From positions 1 through 5,923 of the IMG/VR virus record IMGVR_UViG_2671180460_000007: 5,923 bases of DNA; one strand, 5' to 3'. The stretch comes from a virus. Lineage: Duplodnaviria; Heunggongvirae; Uroviricota; Caudoviricetes. Made by a program: the position numbers and the translations under genes. This document shows positions 1 through 5,923 of this stretch, in pieces. Within the stretch, counting starts at the first letter, position 1, and every line of letters begins with the position of its first letter. A model generated the notes under the pieces. That model searched no databases, was not told the origin of the DNA, and saw nothing but the letters and a program-made list of their open reading frames with translations.

Positions 1-156
1 TCTCTGGGGACGATTTACCGACGTTTTTATAACGGACATTTTCTGCCTGTAGACCAGGAAAGCGCACAGGTTCTTTCTACACCAATGCAGCAGCCCCAGC
101 CGCGAAGATACAGTAACAAACGAACTGACAGCAGTAAGATGGAGCGTTTCTTTTGA
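1..156 (+). CDS. 3' end of an upstream ORF (partial, runs off the left edge); hypothetical phage protein
   Basis: Frame 1 is open from base 1 to TGA at 154-156 (ends ...[14 protein letters not shown]); the other two + frames hit stops within the first 52 nt. Its stop overlaps the TTG at 153 of the next ORF. No family recognised. Confidence 0.3.
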   Translation, partial: SLGTIYRRFYNGHFLPVDQESAQVLSTPMQQPQPRRYSNKRTDSSKMERFF

Positions 157-410
157 ACAACCAGACAATGACTTTTACCCCTGAACAATTACGTAAACAG
201 GCACAGGAAATGTTGCGACAAGCGGAACAACTGGAAAAAACAGGTGTAACAAAAGATACCATTCGTCGGGATATGGTTCCCGCGCTCAGAGAATTGATGC
301 AGGCGAAACACCGTGCACAAAAAGCGGTGGATGAGCTGGTGGATTGTGTGGCAGAGCTGGAAACCAAAGTTGGAAAGTTTGAAAAACTGGTGCATGAGGT
401 GCTGCGCTGA
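153..410 (+). CDS. Hypothetical small phage protein (80-85 aa), predicted coiled-coil rich, immediately upstream of Q
   Basis: Track ORF 153..410. Start is ambiguous: TTG at 153 has GGAG 8 nt upstream; the first ATG is at 168 with no clear SD. Protein is rich in E/K/R/Q/L heptad-like stretches ([19 protein letters not shown]...). Stop TGA 408-410 overlaps the ATG of the next gene (TGATG). Confidence 0.55.
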
Positions 411-793
411 TGCGTGATATTCAGATGGTTCTTGAGCGTTGGGGAGCGTGGGTGGCAAATAATCATGAGGATGTTACCTGGTCATCGATTGCAGCCGGAT
501 TCAAGGGGCTTATTCCTTCAAAGGTTAAATCGCGACCGCAATGTTGTGACGATGATGCGATGGTTATTTGTGGTTGCATGGCTCGTCTGAAAAAGAGCAA
601 CAATGACTTGCATGATTTGCTGGTGGATTATTACGTTTGGGGCATGACGTTTATGAGGCTGGCGCAGAAGCATAATTGCTCTGATGGATATATCGGGAAA
701 AGGTTACAGAAAGCAGAGGGAATAATCGAAGGTATGTTAATGGCATTAGACATTTGCTTAGAGATGGATATTGATGTTACTAAGCTTAATTAA
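410..793 (+). CDS. Late-gene antitermination protein Q (phage 82 / DLP12 QuuD-like family)
   Basis: 127-aa ORF starting [14 protein letters not shown] with a Cys cluster ([12 protein letters not shown]) consistent with a zinc-binding Q antiterminator; size and N-terminus match my recollection of the DLP12 QuuD / 82-type Q family. ATG overlaps the upstream stop; stop TAA at 791-793. Confidence 0.8.
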
Positions 794-925
794 TACGATT
801 ATTTTTTAATAAAAAACGGGGCGTAAAAACACCCCCAAGATAAAGGGTAATATATAACAGAAAGTTTAGATAGTAAGAAGCAGGGCTCTAATGCTTCTTA
901 AAGAAGTGGCTTGAGGGAGCCACTT

Positions 926-958
926 ATATGCTGAGAAGATAAAACCTTCTCAGCATAT
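926..958. terminator. Perfect 13-bp stem / 7-nt loop hairpin between the convergent Q and porin genes; probable (bidirectional) terminator
   Basis: atatgctgagaag (926-938), loop ataaaac, cttctcagcatat (946-958) is an exact reverse complement; followed on + strand by cctttatt. Two further hairpins lie just upstream (874-900, 9-bp stem; 904-925, 7-bp stem). Confidence 0.5.
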
Positions 959-973
959 CCTTTATTAACCAGA

Positions 974-2077
974 TTAGAACTGGTATACCATACCTACAGC
1001 AACGATATCGTCAGTGTTTACACCAAGAGCTTTAGTAAAGTCATTTTTGTCAAGCAGGTTGATTTTGTAATCAACGAAGGTAGACATATTTTTGTTGAAA
1101 TAATAAGTTGCGCCAACATCAACATATTTGACTAAATCCTGGTCACCAAAAATGCCAAGATCTTTACCTTTTGATTGCAGATAAGCAACAGACGGACGCA
1201 GACCGAAATCGAACTGATATTGTGCAACAGCTTCGAAGTTTTGTGCTTTATTAGCCACAAAGTAATCTGCGAATTTAGTCATATTCTGGGTTTCTGAATA
1301 GGTTGTTGCCAGATAAACGTTGTTTGCGTCGTATTTCAGACCTGCAGCCCAGACTTCTGCATTTTCGCCGGAAGCAAATACTCCTGGGAGAAGTTTACCC
1401 AATTTGACTTGAGTGTCGGTACGATCAGATTTCGCATACGTTGCACCAATGCCGAAACCTTCGTATTCATAGGTCGCAGAGAAACCAAAACCATCGCCAT
1501 TGCCTTTGGTGTAGTTATCTAAGCTACTACGATCATGATTATTCTTACCCTGGTACTGTGCAGCAAAATTCAGACCATCAACCAGACCAAAGAAGTCGTT
1601 GTTACGATAAGTTGCAACACCAGTGGTACGACCAGTCATGAATACATCTGTTTGGGTCCAGGTATCTCCACCGAATTCTGGCAGGACGTCAGTCCATGCA
1701 CCGATATCGTATGCTACACCGTAGTTACGACCGTAATCGACGGAGCCGTAGTCACCGAATTTAAGCCCTGCAAATGCAAGACGGGTTTTATCTTTGGCTG
1801 CTCCCTGTTCTTCAGTACGGTTTCCTTTGAATTCATATTCCCACTGACCGAAACCAGTCAGTTGATCGTTGATCTGAGTTTCGCCTTTGAAACCCAGACG
1901 AGCATAAGTTGTGTCGCCATCATTTGCATCGTTAGAGGAGAAGTAGTGCTTAGCATTAACTTTTCCGTACAGATCCAACTTGTTGCTGTCTTTATTATAA
2001 ATCTCTGCTGCCTGAGCAGACATCGCCATCAGTACTGATGCAGCCACAGCAGAAATTGCCACCGTTAATTTTTTCAT
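974..2077 (-). CDS. nmpC: General diffusion porin of the OmpC/OmpF family, prophage-borne NmpC / Lc / OmpD type
   Basis: Signal peptide [23 protein letters not shown] followed by [24 protein letters not shown]..., Gly/Tyr/Asp-rich beta-barrel composition and C-terminal ...VGMVYQF aromatic terminus, all hallmarks of enterobacterial 16-strand porins. The track start at 2080 is GTG; the adjacent ATG at 2077 with AGGG about 6 nt upstream is the more likely start. Stop TAA at 974-976 (minus). Confidence 0.9.
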
Positions 2078-2080
2078 CAC

Positions 2081-2584
2081 GAACCCTTTTTTTTGAACTA
2101 TTTTTAAAAAATGATGTCACTGCGCGATAAATATTCATCTAATCAATGTGGTTATTTCAAGAGTCAAGTTTAATTTAGTGATTGATAATATGATCAAGAT
2201 CTCATTTATGCGCGTTGGTATAATTTGTTGATATTTTTGTGTAATGCGGAATTTAATTAATGAAATACATTATTTACTCATTTTTCATTGAAAAATAACA
2301 ATGATGTATTTGATGTAATATGTGTTATTCGTATGTTTTGTTTTGTTATGTTGCATTAACATTTGAGTGGCGTATTTGTGGTTTACGTACGTAAAAATTC
2401 AATTATGATGTTAAGAGTGGTTGCTTCGACTCCTTCCTTAAAACCGCCGTCGGGCTGTTTTTTGTACCCGAAAAACGGCACAGGACGTTAAACGTGCTGG
2501 TGGTTGCGAATACTGGTCTTTCAGCTTGCTGGCTTTTTCGACAAGAGTTATTGGTATGTCACGTTAACCAGAAAGGAAAAAGAC
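2081..2584. promoter_or_regulatory. About 500-bp AT-rich intergenic region upstream of the porin gene and of the divergent small ORF; presumed porin promoter/regulatory region
   Basis: Very AT-rich, ORF-free stretch directly 5' of the minus-strand porin start. Porin genes of this family carry long AT-rich upstream regions with regulator sites (established knowledge); no individual binding site could be pinned by eye. Confidence 0.4.
2216..2224 (+). promoter_or_regulatory. Candidate extended -10 promoter element (TGgTATAAT) on the + strand, divergent from the porin gene
   Basis: ttGGTATAAT at 2215-2224 gives a perfect TATAAT hexamer (2219-2224) with TG at 2216-2217; no good -35, which extended -10 promoters do not need. 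Would transcribe rightwards toward the small ORF at 2585. Confidence 0.25.
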
Positions 2585-2782
2585 ATGCTAAAACAGCAGG
2601 ATATGACCGAAACTGCCAGAGTGGTGTTTAATGAATTAAGCGTCACCGAACCGGCGACCGTCGGGGAAATTGCGCAGAATACTTACCTTTCACGCGAACG
2701 CTGCCAGTTAATACTGACCCAGCTTGTTATGGCGGGTCTGGCAGATTATCAGTTCGGTTGTTACAGACGCCTTCCGCAGTGA
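2585..2782 (+). CDS. Small (65 aa) putative DNA-binding protein, helix-turn-helix / winged-helix-like
   Basis: Track ORF 2504..2782 begins at TTG; the first ATG is at 2585, with AAGGA (2573-2577) 7 nt upstream, which I take as the start. The segment ATVGEIAQNTYLSRERCQLILTQLVMAGL looks like a helix-turn-helix recognition unit. Lies 150 bp upstream of the methyltransferase gene on the same strand. Confidence 0.5.
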   Translation: MLKQQDMTETARVVFNELSVTEPATVGEIAQNTYLSRERCQLILTQLVMAGLADYQFGCYRRLPQ

Positions 2783-2932
2783 AGGCTTTTTAATTTGTGG
2801 TAATGGGCGGCTGGTGGGTGTTAGCGGCACCTGCCAGCCATCTGCTCATGCGTTGGGGTCACAAGCAAACCTCAGGCCCATCTGCTTTGCGCAAAAGCGG
2901 TATGAGCCTATCAGAGAAGTGCTTATTGATCT

Positions 2933-3997
2933 ATGGCTAATACTGTAAAAATATCCAGTTGTGAGTTAATCAACGCTGATTGCCTGGAATTTATCCGGAC
3001 CTTACCGGAAAACTCTGTCGATCTGATAGTCACAGACCCGCCATACTTTAAAGTGAAGCCCGAGGGCTGGGATAACCAGTGGAAGGGGGACGATGATTAC
3101 CTGAAATGGCTGGCTCAGTGTCTGGCGCAGTTCTGGCGGGTACTGAAACCTGCCGGAAGTCTCTACCTGTTCTGTGGTCATCGCCTGGCATCTGATATCG
3201 AAATCATGATGCGTGAACGCTTTAATGTGCTGAACCACATTATCTGGGCGAAGCCGTCCGGACGCTGGAATGGGTGCAACAAGGAAAGCCTGCGGGCGTA
3301 TTTTCCGGCAACAGAACGCATTCTGTTTGCTGAACATTATCAGGGGCCATACCAGCCAAAAAATGACGGCTATGCAACAAAGGGGCGCGAGCTTAAACAG
3401 CATGTCATGGCCCCGCTGATTTCTTACTTTCGTGATGCGCGCGAATCACTGGGGATAACGTCAAAACAGATAGCAGAAGCCACCGGAAAGAAAAACATGG
3501 CTTCGCACTGGTTTGGTACCAGTCAGTGGCAGTTACCGAATGAGGCCGATTACAGTAAACTGCAGGCGCTGTTTGCACGTGTGGCGGCAGAAAAACACCA
3601 GCGCGGTGAACTGGAGCAGCCACACCACCAGCTGGTCAGCACATACAGCGAACTGAACCGGCAATATGTCAGCCTGCTGGAGGAATACAAATCACTGCGG
3701 CGTTATTTTTCCGTATCGGCTGTCGTTCCTTATACGGATGTCTGGACGCACAAGCCCGTGCAGTATTATCCGGGCAAACATCCCTGTGAAAAACCGGCGG
3801 ATATGTTGCGTCAGATAATTACTGCCAGCAGCCGTCCAGGCGATTTGGTCGCAGATTTTTTTATGGGGTCAGGTTCCACGATAAAAGCGGCACTGTTGCT
3901 GGGACGCAGGGCGATTGGCGTGGAACTGGAAAAAGAACGTTTTGAACAGACCGTCGGTGAAATAATGGAGCAGGCAGAGAAACCAGGTAGTGCATAA
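2933..3997 (+). CDS. DNA methyltransferase, beta-class amino-methyltransferase (N6-adenine type most likely; N4-cytosine not excluded); orphan within this window
   Basis: 354-aa ORF with catalytic motif IV DPPY near the N-terminus (DLIVTDPPYF) and AdoMet-binding motif I FxGxG near the C-terminus (DFFMGSGST). This IV-before-I order is the beta-class permutation; DPPY rather than SPPY favours N6-adenine. No endonuclease-like ORF is adjacent. Confidence 0.88.
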   Translation: MANTVKISSCELINADCLEFIRTLPENSVDLIVTDPPYFKVKPEGWDNQWKGDDDYLKWLAQCLAQFWRVLKPAGSLYLFCGHRLASDIEIMMRERFNVLNHIIWAKPSGRWNGCNKESLRAYFPATERILFAEHYQGPYQPKNDGYATKGRELKQHVMAPLISYFRDARESLGITSKQIAEATGKKNMASHWFGTSQWQLPNEADYSKLQALFARVAAEKHQRGELEQPHHQLVSTYSELNRQYVSLLEEYKSLRRYFSVSAVVPYTDVWTHKPVQYYPGKHPCEKPADMLRQIITASSRPGDLVADFFMGSGSTIKAALLLGRRAIGVELEKERFEQTVGEIMEQAEKPGSA

Positions 3998-4280
3998 TAA
4001 GATAAGAACGGAAAACTTATTATCACGCAGAATGCGCGACGCGAACTAGGCAAGGTGACCGTACTGGCAGTTTCATTGCTCATCTGCCAGTTTTTGACAC
4101 AGGTTGTGTACTGGTTGCGAAAGCACGTGGTTGGATGAGTTCTGCGTTCACATACAGGGTGGTGTGAAGCCAGTTTTTTTCTGTGTATTCAGATGGCGTT
4201 CTGATTTTATGACGAGTTACGTGAACATCAGGGTGTTATGAGTTGGGACGTCATCTTAATGCAACATATTTAATTATGTG

Positions 4281-4379
4281 ATGCCTTATCGGGATAAGGC
4301 ATGATTTCTGGTGTTCTTTGCAATGCAGACATCTCATTTATCAGATAATCATGCTTTATCCCGATGATGCATCAGGCAT
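4281..4379. repeat. Long near-perfect inverted repeat (about 28 paired positions, 31-nt central loop) in the non-coding region between methyltransferase and tRNAs
   Basis: Arm A 4288-4306 (atcgggataaggcatgatt) pairs with arm B 4347-4365 (aatcatgctttatcccgat): 18 Watson-Crick pairs plus one G:T. Extended by tctg (4307-4310) with caga (4342-4345) and by atgcc (4281-4285) with ggcat (4375-4379). Each arm also holds a local 10-bp palindrome (atgccttatc gg gataaggcat at 4281-4302; tgatgcatca at 4365-4374). Confidence 0.55.
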
Positions 4380-4416
4380 TGTCTTATGAGGTTTCATTGT
4401 ACTCTTTTATTTGCGG

Positions 4417-4447
4417 CCCACTGGTTTTTTACTGGTGGGTATTTTTT
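4417..4447 (+). terminator. Candidate rho-independent terminator downstream of the methyltransferase gene
   Basis: cccactgg (4417-4424), loop tttttta, ctggtggg (4432-4439): 8-bp stem including two G:U pairs, followed by tattttttgg. Confidence 0.35.
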
Positions 4448-4519
4448 GGCTTTTTGTGAAATGCTGCAGTAAATAAAATTTTTATTCAAACAAATTTACA
4501 ATTGCGCGAGTAATAAATA

Positions 4520-4547
4520 TTGCATCCGGAATATTTATTAGTATTAT
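4520..4547 (+). promoter_or_regulatory. Candidate sigma70 promoter for the tRNA transcription unit
   Basis: TTGCAT (4520-4525), 16-bp spacer, TATTAT (4542-4547); AT-rich UP-like sequence upstream (aaataaaatttttattcaaacaaattt); predicted start about 60 nt upstream of the first tRNA. Confidence 0.35.
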
Positions 4548-4614
4548 TTCTGCGGTTCCGAGGGGATGGTACGATATGTATCGGGGCATCTCATCTCACG
4601 CCCGAGGAACCAAC

Positions 4615-4690
<76 letters not shown>

Positions 4691-4693
4691 TAT

Positions 4694-4768
<75 letters not shown>

Positions 4769-5033
4769 CAGTAACTAAGGCGAGATTGTTTCAGGCACTG
4801 ATGTAATATAATATATGTGGGGTGTTTTTTTCTGACTCCTTACCACGCCCTGTTCTGTAATGAGTGATATCAGTACAGTTCCAGTGCCACTTTTTTACAA
4901 CACCGGAATAATGCATTATTAGCCAGGATTTTGTTTTTTTCTTCTGCAAATGTATTATCCCGATGTTGTAAACATCGACAAAAACAAAACTGTGATTAGT
5001 CACATACTAAGTCAAGCCCGGAAATACATCCTT

Positions 5034-5059
5034 AACCGCCGCACCAGGCGGTTTTTTTT
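5034..5059 (+). terminator. Strong rho-independent terminator closing the tRNA transcription unit
   Basis: aaccgcc (5034-5040), loop gcacca, ggcggtt (5047-5053): perfect 7-bp stem followed by a run of 8 T (5052-5059). Confidence 0.7.
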
Positions 5060-5233
5060 ATTCCGTTTTTTATGGACCGTTCAGTCGGACCTTTTTCATA
5101 TCCGCGTCACGCCCGGCGCACATCAAAAACCACAGAGCCTTTCAGTGGCGAGCTTACGGGATGGTCAGTGTGACTTTCTCTGTGGGCTGGTCACCCCCGG
5201 GCGGAGGCTCACCCACTAAAAGGAAAAGTAACG

Positions 5234-5659
5234 ATGTTTGGTATTTTCAAAAAGAAAACCCGCAAGGCCATTACTGAAGTGAAGAAGATGGAGAACCGCG
5301 ACGCAGTGGAGGCGACCGTCTGGGGCGCGTATTCCATAGCATTCGCCGACGGCACCTGTGATGCGAAAGAAATCGCTGTGCTGGAGAAAACCATTGCAGC
5401 ACTTCCTGCTTTTGCGCCGTTCTCGGGTGAGATTGCACAAATGAGTGCAAATATCCGCGCCCGTTATGAAGCGTCACCTCGTAGTGCGAATGCTCAGGCT
5501 TTGCGTGAACTGGCTGATGTGGCAGGAACCACCGAAGCGGTTGATGTGCTGTGCCTGTGTCTTGATATTGCTGACCAGGATGGCATTGGTCCGGATGAAG
5601 AAGCACAGCTCAAGAAAATTGCTCAGGCGCTGCAGTTGCCGCTGGAGCAGTACCTGTGA
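5234..5659 (+). CDS. TerB-fold (tellurite-resistance TerB-like) small soluble protein, 141 aa
   Basis: Good SD (AAGGAAAAG) 8 nt before ATG. Two copies of the TerB-type signature: AFADGTCDAKEIAVLEKTIAAL and LDIADQDGIGPDEEAQLKKIAQAL (acidic ADG/DQDG motif followed by E and an amphipathic helix). No predicted transmembrane segment. Confidence 0.75.
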   Translation: MFGIFKKKTRKAITEVKKMENRDAVEATVWGAYSIAFADGTCDAKEIAVLEKTIAALPAFAPFSGEIAQMSANIRARYEASPRSANAQALRELADVAGTTEAVDVLCLCLDIADQDGIGPDEEAQLKKIAQALQLPLEQYL

Positions 5660-5805
5660 AAAGTGCGCGCCTTGTGCTGGCTGCCATCCTGCTGTTTCTG
5701 GTGGTGGTGGATTTCACCGGACGGCTGATGTCGGTGCTGGCAGATGGTGTGCTGGTGGCGATGGCGCTGGTCGTGCTCCGGCCTTTACTGCGTAAATCTG
5801 AATAG
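5656..5805 (+). CDS. Small hydrophobic ORF (49 aa, two predicted membrane-spanning segments), translationally coupled to the TerB-like gene; not in the supplied ORF track
   Basis: GTG at 5656 overlaps the TerB-like stop (cTGTGAaa; GTG 5656-5658, TGA 5657-5659); GGAG at 5644-5647 lies 8 nt upstream. Translation VKSARLVLAAILLFLVVVDFTGRLMSVLADGVLVAMALVVLRPLLRKSE*: basic N-terminus, two hydrophobic stretches, basic C-terminus. Stop TAG at 5803-5805. In this frame the nearest upstream stop is 5596-5598 and GTG 5656 is the first plausible start. Confidence 0.4.
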   Translation: MKSARLVLAAILLFLVVVDFTGRLMSVLADGVLVAMALVVLRPLLRKSE

Positions 5806-5855
5806 CACCACACAAAAGGTATCTGCGGGTGCCTTTGACGGGGTGTTTTTTTACG

Positions 5856-5876
5856 GGCCGACAGTGGCCTTTTTTT
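5856..5876 (+). terminator. Weak terminator-like hairpin plus T-run after the small hydrophobic ORF
   Basis: ggcc (5856-5859), loop gacagt, ggcc (5866-5869), followed by tttttttattt. The stem is only 4-5 bp, so this would be leaky at best. Confidence 0.25.
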
Positions 5877-5894
5877 ATTTACAGGAGAAAAAGT

Positions 5895-5923
5895 ATGTCT
5901 GAACCCTTATCCGGTTCCGGCAC
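5895..5923 (+). CDS. 5' end of a downstream gene (partial, runs off the right edge); product unknown
   Basis: ATG at 5895 preceded by a strong SD (AGGAG at 5883-5887, 7-nt spacing); reads MSEPLSGSG... to the window end. Not recognisable as a lambda- or 21-type holin or endolysin N-terminus. Confidence 0.4.

Follow-up and report, generated by a model that had tools for sequence, protein, structure and literature searches.

The stretch analysed here, 5,923 nucleotides at positions 1 to 5,923 of the IMG/VR virus record IMGVR_UViG_2671180460_000007 (Caudoviricetes) and hereafter called the window, carries on one strand a small open reading frame (ORF) of 65 residues, a spacer of exactly 150 bp (2783-2932) and a gene for a 354-residue DNA methyltransferase, all downstream of a phage Q antiterminator gene (Table 1). 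A sequence-only reading had described the two ORFs and the gap, and their coordinates, lengths and motifs match the ORF listing. The enzyme itself is not new, being a further allele of an abundant, known family of prophage methylases. The novelty lies in its companions, a small winged-helix gene and a conserved, folded RNA leader, which probably keep a toxic enzyme tightly controlled. The account as a whole, to which we give a probability of roughly 0.75, is that of an M.EcoGII-type methylase in a lambdoid late operon, providing Q-dependent, broad anti-restriction and held by two companion locks.

Table 1. Features of the window, with positions counted from its first nucleotide.
Feature	Position	Strand	Description and basis
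PHROG-unknown ORF	153-410		Opens the window's gene list
Q antiterminator gene	410..793	+	127 aa; Pfam Phage_antitermQ PF06530, E=1.1e-53
OmpC/NmpC-like porin moron	974-2080	opposite strand	Between the Q gene and the late promoter
pR'-like late promoter	2382..2421	+	Promoter scan match
Candidate Q-binding element	2382-2395		14-bp perfect palindrome TTTACGTACGTAAA, overlying the -35 region
-35	2382-2387	+	TTTACG
-10	2404-2409	+	TATGAT
Conserved initially transcribed sequence	2410-2421	+	GTTAAGAGTGGT
tR' terminator position	2438..2479	+	Weak stem and T-run at 2438-2463; alternative hairpin at 2454-2479
Conserved non-coding block	2525..2562	+	CTTGCTG-N12-ACAAGAGTTATTGGTATGTCAC, just upstream of the small ORF
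Small ORF	2585..2782	+	65 aa, winged helix; ATG at 2585
Hairpin P0	2769..2796	+	GCCTTC-CGCAGT-GAAGGC, then TTTTTAATTT; terminator scan and fold
Structured RNA leader	2802..2903	+	Three-way junction and hairpin P4
P1	2804-2808/2876-2880	+	UGGGC/GCCCA
P2	2809-2820/2828-2839	+	12-13 bp hairpin
P3	2841-2846/2864-2869	+	UyNGCU...AGCNrA
P4	2884-2888/2894-2898	+	Hairpin or palindrome
Methylase translation initiation region	2904..2932	+	Without canonical Shine-Dalgarno
Methylase gene	2933..3997	+	354 aa; beta-class N6-adenine DNA methyltransferase, M.EcoGII family
Intrinsic-terminator-like hairpin	4416..4447	+	Strong; 3' of the methylase gene and 5' of the tRNA genes; terminator scan
tRNA-Thr(UGU) and tRNA-Gly(UCC)	4615-4768		Phage-borne, 3 nt apart, downstream of the methylase gene
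TerB-family (tellurite-resistance-like) moron	5234-5659		141 aa; PHROG 632

The methylase and its expected specificity

The methylase has the beta order of motifs, in which motif IV is followed by the target-recognition domain (TRD) and then by motif I, and both catalytic motifs are intact: VTDPPYF stands near the N-terminus (residues 33-39, with DPPY at 35-38, in the ORF listing) and FFMGSGST near the C-terminus (residues 309-316, with FMGSG, an FxGxG motif, at 310-314). Pfam N6_N4_Mtase (PF01555) matches residues 29-340 with E=6.6e-45, and the two conserved halves align to the solved beta-class enzymes M.RsrI, CcrM, M.MboIIA and the 283-aa enzyme 8urk, the central insert of about 165 residues between them being the TRD. 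The alignment to M.EcoGII runs over the full length, TRD included, with 297 identities in 347 positions (about 86%), an approximate figure whose true value may be slightly higher because the M.EcoGII sequence was machine-read from Supplementary Table S1 of PMC11551740 and contains a few optical character recognition errors. Identity is 85% to the enzyme of phage 1720a-02, which has been named as very similar to M.EcoGII (PMC5778455), and 72% to Anc284/SUPREM, the deepest characterised reconstructed ancestor; ancestors along the M.EcoGII branch are still non-site-specific (PMC11551740). Closer database relatives, at 94-97% identity, are common in E. coli. These identities put the protein in the M.EcoGII family at the level of an orthologue. 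The sequence-only description of a beta-class, phage-borne, orphan methyltransferase of the N6-adenine type is right.

M.EcoGII, from E. coli O104:H4 C227-11, methylates adenine in DNA and RNA without sequence specificity (Murray et al. 2018; PMC5778455), and enzymes of its type, with DPPY, a central TRD and FxGxG, form a very large family in E. coli prophages (PMC5778455). Since the window protein is bracketed by two experimentally non-specific enzymes, M.EcoGII and Anc284/SUPREM, the best inference from homology is that it would share the family's activity, the methylation of adenine in any sequence context, in single-stranded DNA and RNA as well. Target specificity, which the sequence-only reading had considered beyond reach from the letters, thus becomes predictable from identity to M.EcoGII and to the non-specific ancestor. 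M.EcoGII is also a commercial reagent for chromatin footprinting. Alternatively, the methylase could be a site-specific orphan with a motif of its own, controlling host or phage genes epigenetically in the lysogen. This alternative would accord with the generic label that NCBI records give the family, 'site-specific DNA-methyltransferase', with TRD differences from M.EcoGII at a number of positions, and with a weak tR' and an upstream block, 2525-2562, that could be an internal promoter. We consider it improbable, however, as the identities place the protein inside the non-specific clade, the nearest site-specific relative, M.PflMI, is 27% identical to M.EcoGII (PMC11551740), homologues are silent in lysogen methylomes and constitutive expression is harmful. 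Of the two roles put forward in the sequence-only reading, motif-specific epigenetic control is therefore unlikely, because the expected methylation has no sequence context, while anti-restriction appears the most plausible role. PADLOC assigned the methylase to a generic type II methyltransferase model and to no defence system beyond it.

In comparison with M.EcoGII and M.EcoGI, the window allele shares the beta motif order, a similar length (354 versus 349 aa), about 86% identity over the catalytic domain and TRD together, and the situation of a prophage-borne orphan just downstream of Q in lambdoid prophages; it differs from M.EcoGII by about 50 substitutions and by a C-terminus that is 5 residues longer. 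The Dam-type methylases of phages, such as M.EcoVT2Dam of Shiga toxin (Stx) phages and T4 Dam, are likewise phage-borne orphan N6-adenine enzymes with a presumed anti-restriction role. They belong to a different motif-order class, whereas the window enzyme is of the beta class and is expected to act independently of sequence. Phage Dam-type enzymes are GATC-specific (PMC6602927). Phage 1720a-02 carries a separate Dam-type 'DNA adenine methyltransferase' in its early region.

No cognate endonuclease accompanies the methylase, as the sequence-only reading had noted for the window. The ORF listing, Pfam and PHROG revealed no nuclease-like ORF in the window, and no endonuclease is annotated in the 30-kb prophage of E. 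coli EC11, the closest complete genome. All ORFs within 3.5 kb of the methylase were also clustered at 49 genome loci, which represent various Enterobacterales genera and some metagenome bins. Q-type antiterminators, DUF968 and DUF1367 recur on the upstream side, and lysozyme, Rz, holin and terminase on the downstream side; no restriction partner is among these recurrent neighbours.

The winged-helix partner and hairpin P0

The small ORF upstream of the methylase is a genuine gene under purifying selection. Its ATG is preceded at 8-12 nt by AAGGA, its product matches PHROG 331 (E=1.4e-37), and codon differences from homologues in other genera are synonymous-only over non-synonymous by about 2.5:1. 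The homologues make up 334 protein clusters, mostly of 63-65 aa and annotated as 'TrmB family' or 'DprA-like winged helix', and an alignment of 26 homologues, 81-98% identical to the window protein, has 26 invariant columns. Pfam gave a weak TrmB match (E=0.006), and PADLOC gave no match for this protein. The AlphaFold model (predicted local distance difference test score 89.9) is a canonical winged helix composed of H1, H2, H3 and a beta-hairpin wing. Foldseek returned generic winged-helix domains at E of about 1e-3, including IclR and MarR regulators, the dimerisation domains of O-methyltransferases and the RNA-binding winged helix of SelB, and a winged-helix profile searched against the PDB gave marginal matches (E=0.06), again to O-methyltransferase dimerisation domains.

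Linkage to the methylase is tight. Of the 49 genome loci whose methylase is full-length, about 37 have the small ORF some 155 bp ahead of it, and in Photorhabdus and Xenorhabdus the linkage holds at an identity as low as 40%. When viral loci were retrieved through the small protein alone, 73 of the 74 with room downstream of the small ORF had the methylase at a gap of 153-154 nt. Because of this linkage at a fixed distance, the small ORF is a conserved partner of the methylase and not a random moron, and the sequence-only suggestion of an unrelated moron falls away.

The nature of the partnership could be that of a C protein. The winged-helix protein might act as a transcriptional controller that binds block 2525-2562 or the P4 palindrome (2884-2898) and so times or represses the methylase. 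Small DNA-binding-type proteins encoded just upstream of, and on the same strand as, the methyltransferase are found in C-protein type II restriction-modification systems, and the close linkage and spacing, a fold characteristic of DNA-binding regulators (IclR/MarR-type winged helices) and the conserved non-coding DNA on both sides of the small ORF all argue for such a controller. P4, moreover, is a perfect 16-bp palindrome in many loci and shows a symmetric change in Gilliamella-type loci. C proteins, however, have an XRE-type helix-turn-helix, whereas the model and structural matches make the window protein a winged helix; they belong to systems with a linked endonuclease, whereas none to be delayed was found in the window or related loci; and no C-box-like repeat was found, block 2525-2562 being weakly palindromic and differing in the window. 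Owing to the winged-helix fold and the lack of a linked endonuclease, the small protein is not the C protein of a restriction-modification system, contrary to the controller-type regulator that the sequence-only reading had entertained. The leader, P0 and P4 also persist in loci without the small ORF, and a DNA operator is one option among several, since winged helices bind RNA (SelB) or, according to published titles and abstracts, sense N6-methyladenine (m6A) in DNA. We therefore regard transcriptional control of this kind as possible but somewhat unlikely; it is compatible with the main model, in which the small protein may bind a DNA operator, bind RNA or sense methylated DNA.

The end of the small ORF coincides with a terminator-like element, P0, in which a stem-loop (2769-2786) is followed by a T-run and the stop codon (2780-2782) falls within the loop and 3' arm. 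Other loci, among them loci without the small ORF, preserve pairing in the P0 stem through changes in both strands. A ribosome terminating on the small ORF would melt P0, so that read-through might depend on the small ORF being translated; we put this coupling forward as a hypothesis.

A structured RNA leader ahead of the methylase start

The spacer, which the sequence-only reading had viewed as possible operator DNA, encodes a conserved, covariation-supported and previously unannotated RNA structure. Independent minimum free energy (MFE) folds of 38 distinct sequences gave the same three-way junction in most, and the fold of the leader in the window has z = -3.7. A covariance model built from 22 sequences matched once per locus and always on the sense strand, at 68-119 bits against less than 20 bits for the antisense strand. 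Among about 120 viral contigs retrieved by the leader sequence pattern alone, the leader lay 45-46 nt before the methylase start wherever there was room, the exceptions being two variants described below; it is present even in loci without the small ORF. In terms of plain conservation the leader is not set apart from coding sequence, as nucleotide identity to the window across genera is 74% for the leader and 73% for the methylase coding sequence.

Pairing is preserved far beyond sequence. In the model-fitted alignment of 59 distinct sequences, which leans towards structure, 95.3% of cells are paired compared with 28-45% when partners are slid, and 21 of 32 pairs show changes on both sides compared with 4.5 in shuffles (0/500). 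A plain MAFFT alignment that was not fitted to structure also supports covariation in P1 and P3 (0/500 shuffles), with one P3 pair occurring as CG 18, AU 8, UA 8 and UG 4 times. RNAalifold recovered the structure in part from the raw MAFFT alignment, since the P2 bulge shifts between lineages. One related locus, here numbered L269, retains the junction although its P2 is wholly different (GAUCGGAGAG/CUCUUCCGAUC), and Gilliamella-type leaders show compensatory change in all of P1, P2, P3 and P4. Searches of Rfam 15 gave no match in 2783-2932 up to E=1; over the whole window at E<=1 they gave just the two tRNAs and spurious miRNA-type matches on hairpins. The characteristic sequence strings of the leader led to nothing relevant in the literature searched.

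Conservation of the spacer might instead reflect signals at the level of DNA, such as Chi sites, operators or a promoter. The 5' arm of P2 does contain a Chi site (GCTGGTGG, 2810-2817), Chi is over-represented in the window (6 against 0.15 expected) and in related prophages, and P4 is a DNA palindrome. Yet the pairing of P1, P2 and P3 is kept by compensatory changes where the sequence, Chi included, is entirely different (L269, L033, L040 and Gilliamella), and the G-U pairs, like the strong preference of the covariance model for the sense strand, indicate a strand-specific structure. Single-base indels exclude a conserved ORF in the spacer. An explanation from DNA signals in place of RNA structure is consequently quite unlikely.

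Two further candidate elements in the leader were rejected. A leader peptide with tandem Trp codons (ATG GGC GGC TGG TGG GTG TTG TAG) is not conserved, as this mini-ORF is interrupted or shifted out of frame in L033, L040 and Gilliamella, and one-base insertions and deletions are frequent. A pseudoknot (GGUCAC::GUGAGCC) is broken by one-sided changes in several lineages. The two exceptions to the spacing noted above, L075 and L123, are deletion or duplication variants of the module: L075 has the leader followed by just the last 60 or so methylase residues, and viral contig L123 has two units of small ORF and leader about 3 kb apart (337-365 and 3322-3351), one of which is followed by a truncated methylase.

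The leader can also be folded in a way that involves the methylase start. TGCTT (2920-2924) and TGATC (2927-2931) can pair with AAGCA (2863-2867) and GGTCA (2857-2861) of P3, and when folding is continued through the start codon this alternative is the MFE structure in the window, L021, L269 and most relatives. In it, P1 and P3 join through their 5' strands (AUGGGC of P1 with GCUCAU of P3), and the 3' strand of P3 (GGUCA-CA-AAGCN) pairs with NGCUU-AC-UGAUC at -13 to -2 of the AUG. UGAUC is complementary to GAUCA near the 3' end of 16S rRNA. The two folds differ by about -3 to +9 kcal/mol, and the alternative pairs are 94% compatible among enterobacterial sequences compared with 24-37% for slid controls. 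In Gilliamella-type leaders GGUCAU pairs with AUGACC, which includes the start codon itself, and GAGUAU pairs with AUAUUC; this recurrence of the same logic with other sequences is regarded as the best support for the alternative fold.

These predicted folds suggest that the leader is a translational switch. The three-way junction would form first during transcription, leaving the start region free for a short window of translation, and subsequent refolding would occlude the start unless a factor holds the junction, such that pairing of the start region would restrict translation either kinetically or in response to that factor. Mutually exclusive leader folds are known from riboswitch expression platforms, and kinetic folding from the mRNAs of the MS2 maturation gene and hok. 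As in these systems, an early 5' fold would free the start and a later, more stable long-range pairing would occlude it, but the window leader matches no Rfam family by sequence or structure and the likeness is drawn from predicted folds.

Probable late-operon setting and proposed role

The Q gene marks the start of the late region, and the methylase gene is probably the start, or first cargo, of a lambdoid prophage's late operon: the window holds both the Q gene and a promoter-like site with a palindrome, and lysis genes follow downstream in relatives, with a terminator that is degenerate here. The pR'-like element occurs once in the window, with no second copy after Q. Its -10 and the GTTAAGAGTGG block stand directly after the Q gene in phage 1720a-02 and in L021 (Salmonella) and L031, where the palindrome before the -10 differs, different palindromes going with different Q types. 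The site is thus probably the late promoter pR' with a Q-type-specific binding element, the porin moron having been inserted between it and Q in the window. At the tR' position aligned relatives have strong CCCGCCGCGAGCGGGTTTTTTTAT-type terminators. The Sp5 StxS/pR'-tR' region of strain Sakai was uninformative as a comparison, because Sp5 has no module (Q is followed by tRNAs and then stx2). Block 2525-2562, whose consensus elsewhere is ACCAGAGTTATCTGTATGTCAC, also written CTTGCTG-N12-A(C)CAGAGTTATCTGTATGTCAC, is kept from Escherichia to Photorhabdus and Xenorhabdus; a promoter scan found no sigma-70 promoter with acceptable spacing in it, and no clear hairpin was found there.

This arrangement recurs in related phages. 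In many related loci a Q-type gene precedes the module, and the order in phage 1720a-02 is Q, small ORF, methylase, stx2. The Stx phages phiP27 and 1720a-02 and Stx2a/Stx2c phages share the module of 'hypothetical protein + DNA methylase' near Q, with DNA that is 80-92% identical over a span reaching from about 175 bp ahead of the small ORF almost to the end of the methylase gene, and a survey of Stx2a phages reported 352-aa putative methylases downstream of Q (PMC10462455). Stx phages differ from the window in their downstream cargo, which is stx instead of tRNA-Thr/Gly and TerB, and in having no porin between Q and the module. E. coli EC11 is 96% identical over 81% of the window and continues beyond the match with DUF3927, holins, endolysin, terminase, portal and capsid genes, of which the terminase, portal and capsid genes are frameshifted.

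Such frameshifts could mean that the methylase gene is itself in decay, a functionless leftover from a cryptic prophage, the more so as M.EcoGII was described on a cryptic prophage and is not expressed (PMC5778455), and as the porin separates Q from pR' and tR' is degenerate in the window. Decay is very improbable, however: neither the reading frame nor the catalytic motifs are damaged, synonymous changes outnumber non-synonymous ones by about 2:1 across genera, and the module is found in the bona fide inducible Stx phages phiP27 and 1720a-02.

Published data on the family are consistent with a silent gene in the lysogen. Lysogens do not express M.EcoGI and M.EcoGII, whose constitutive expression is deleterious, and no mechanism for this silence was offered (PMC5778455). 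The methylome study of O111 Shiga toxin-producing E. coli listed homologues of M.EcoGI/GII as orphan and 'nonspecific' and detected no methylation motif corresponding to them in growing lysogens (PMC6602927). In our preferred account, transcripts from pR' would stop at terminators in the lysogen, keeping the toxic enzyme off, and after induction Q-modified RNA polymerase would read through them. The methylase, whose expression is probably Q-dependent, would then be made late and methylate most adenines of replicating or packaged phage DNA, and progeny phage would withstand the many restriction enzymes of types I, II and III whose cleavage is blocked by m6A, although they would become sensitive to nucleases that depend on m6A. 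Leakage and overproduction of the enzyme would be kept in check by the winged-helix gene and the leader.

Several points weigh against this account. The protein departs from M.EcoGII at about 14% of its residues, several of which lie in the TRD, and its preference may have shifted; the non-specific activity expected of the window protein is itself extrapolated from its homologues. tR' is degenerate in the window, with a less convincing fold (z = -1.5), and because of this and of the potential internal promoter in block 2525-2562, the methylase may be expressed in the lysogen. No paper in the searched literature shows induction of M.EcoGII-type enzymes or hypermethylation of virion DNA. The winged-helix protein is not required for the leader or P0, since both persist in loci without its gene, and the methylase homologues in L018, L035 and L260-L268 have no such leader. 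The sequestering fold shows no double compensatory changes among enterobacterial sequences, and because their changes are one-sided (G-U to G-C, G-U to A-U), covariation does not prove it.

The candidate controls on this dangerous enzyme are its position behind pR', hairpin P0 over the winged-helix stop codon and the two-fold leader RNA. More tentatively, with somewhat less than even odds, the M.EcoGII family carries an undescribed cis-regulatory RNA of about 80 nt that toggles with a start-occluding fold, perhaps together with the winged-helix protein and P0, in a multi-layer lock opened only in lytic growth; the winged-helix protein may serve in this lock as an RNA binder, a DNA operator protein or an m6A reader. 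The literature searched yielded no description of the winged-helix partner and the structured, possibly bistable leader, and no paper on regulation of the EcoGII gene (induction, riboswitch or untranslated region). If the lock is real, enterobacterial prophages, Stx phages among them, would possess a regulatory RNA motif of a new kind, which could help in the controlled expression of M.EcoGII-type enzymes.

Other features of the window concern its cargo. The AT-rich region upstream of the porin moron (2081-2380) is 31% GC, and a hairpin lies near the porin at 926-958. The terminator-like hairpin beyond the methylase folds at -15.3 kcal/mol (z = -3.6). The same Thr/Gly tRNA pair is found upstream, not downstream, of the module in L025, and the tRNA set of Sakai Sp5 is ileZ-argN-argO, unlike the pair in the window. 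Imperfect inverted repeats flank the tRNA genes at 4279-4374 (28 nt, 89% complementary) and 4894-4972 (24 nt, 88%), the latter giving spurious miRNA-family matches in Rfam on both strands. The TerB-family gene overlaps the start of a 49-aa ORF (region 5234-5805), which corresponds by position to the DUF3927 gene annotated in E. coli EC11 just 5' of the lysis genes. The six exact Chi sites in 5.9 kb lie at 335, 619, 2496, 2810 and 5751 on the + strand and at 3625 on the - strand. A + strand excess of Chi is also seen in related prophage loci, with 14 on + and 0 on - in 13 kb of L013, and the Sakai Sp5 stretch has 0 Chi sites.

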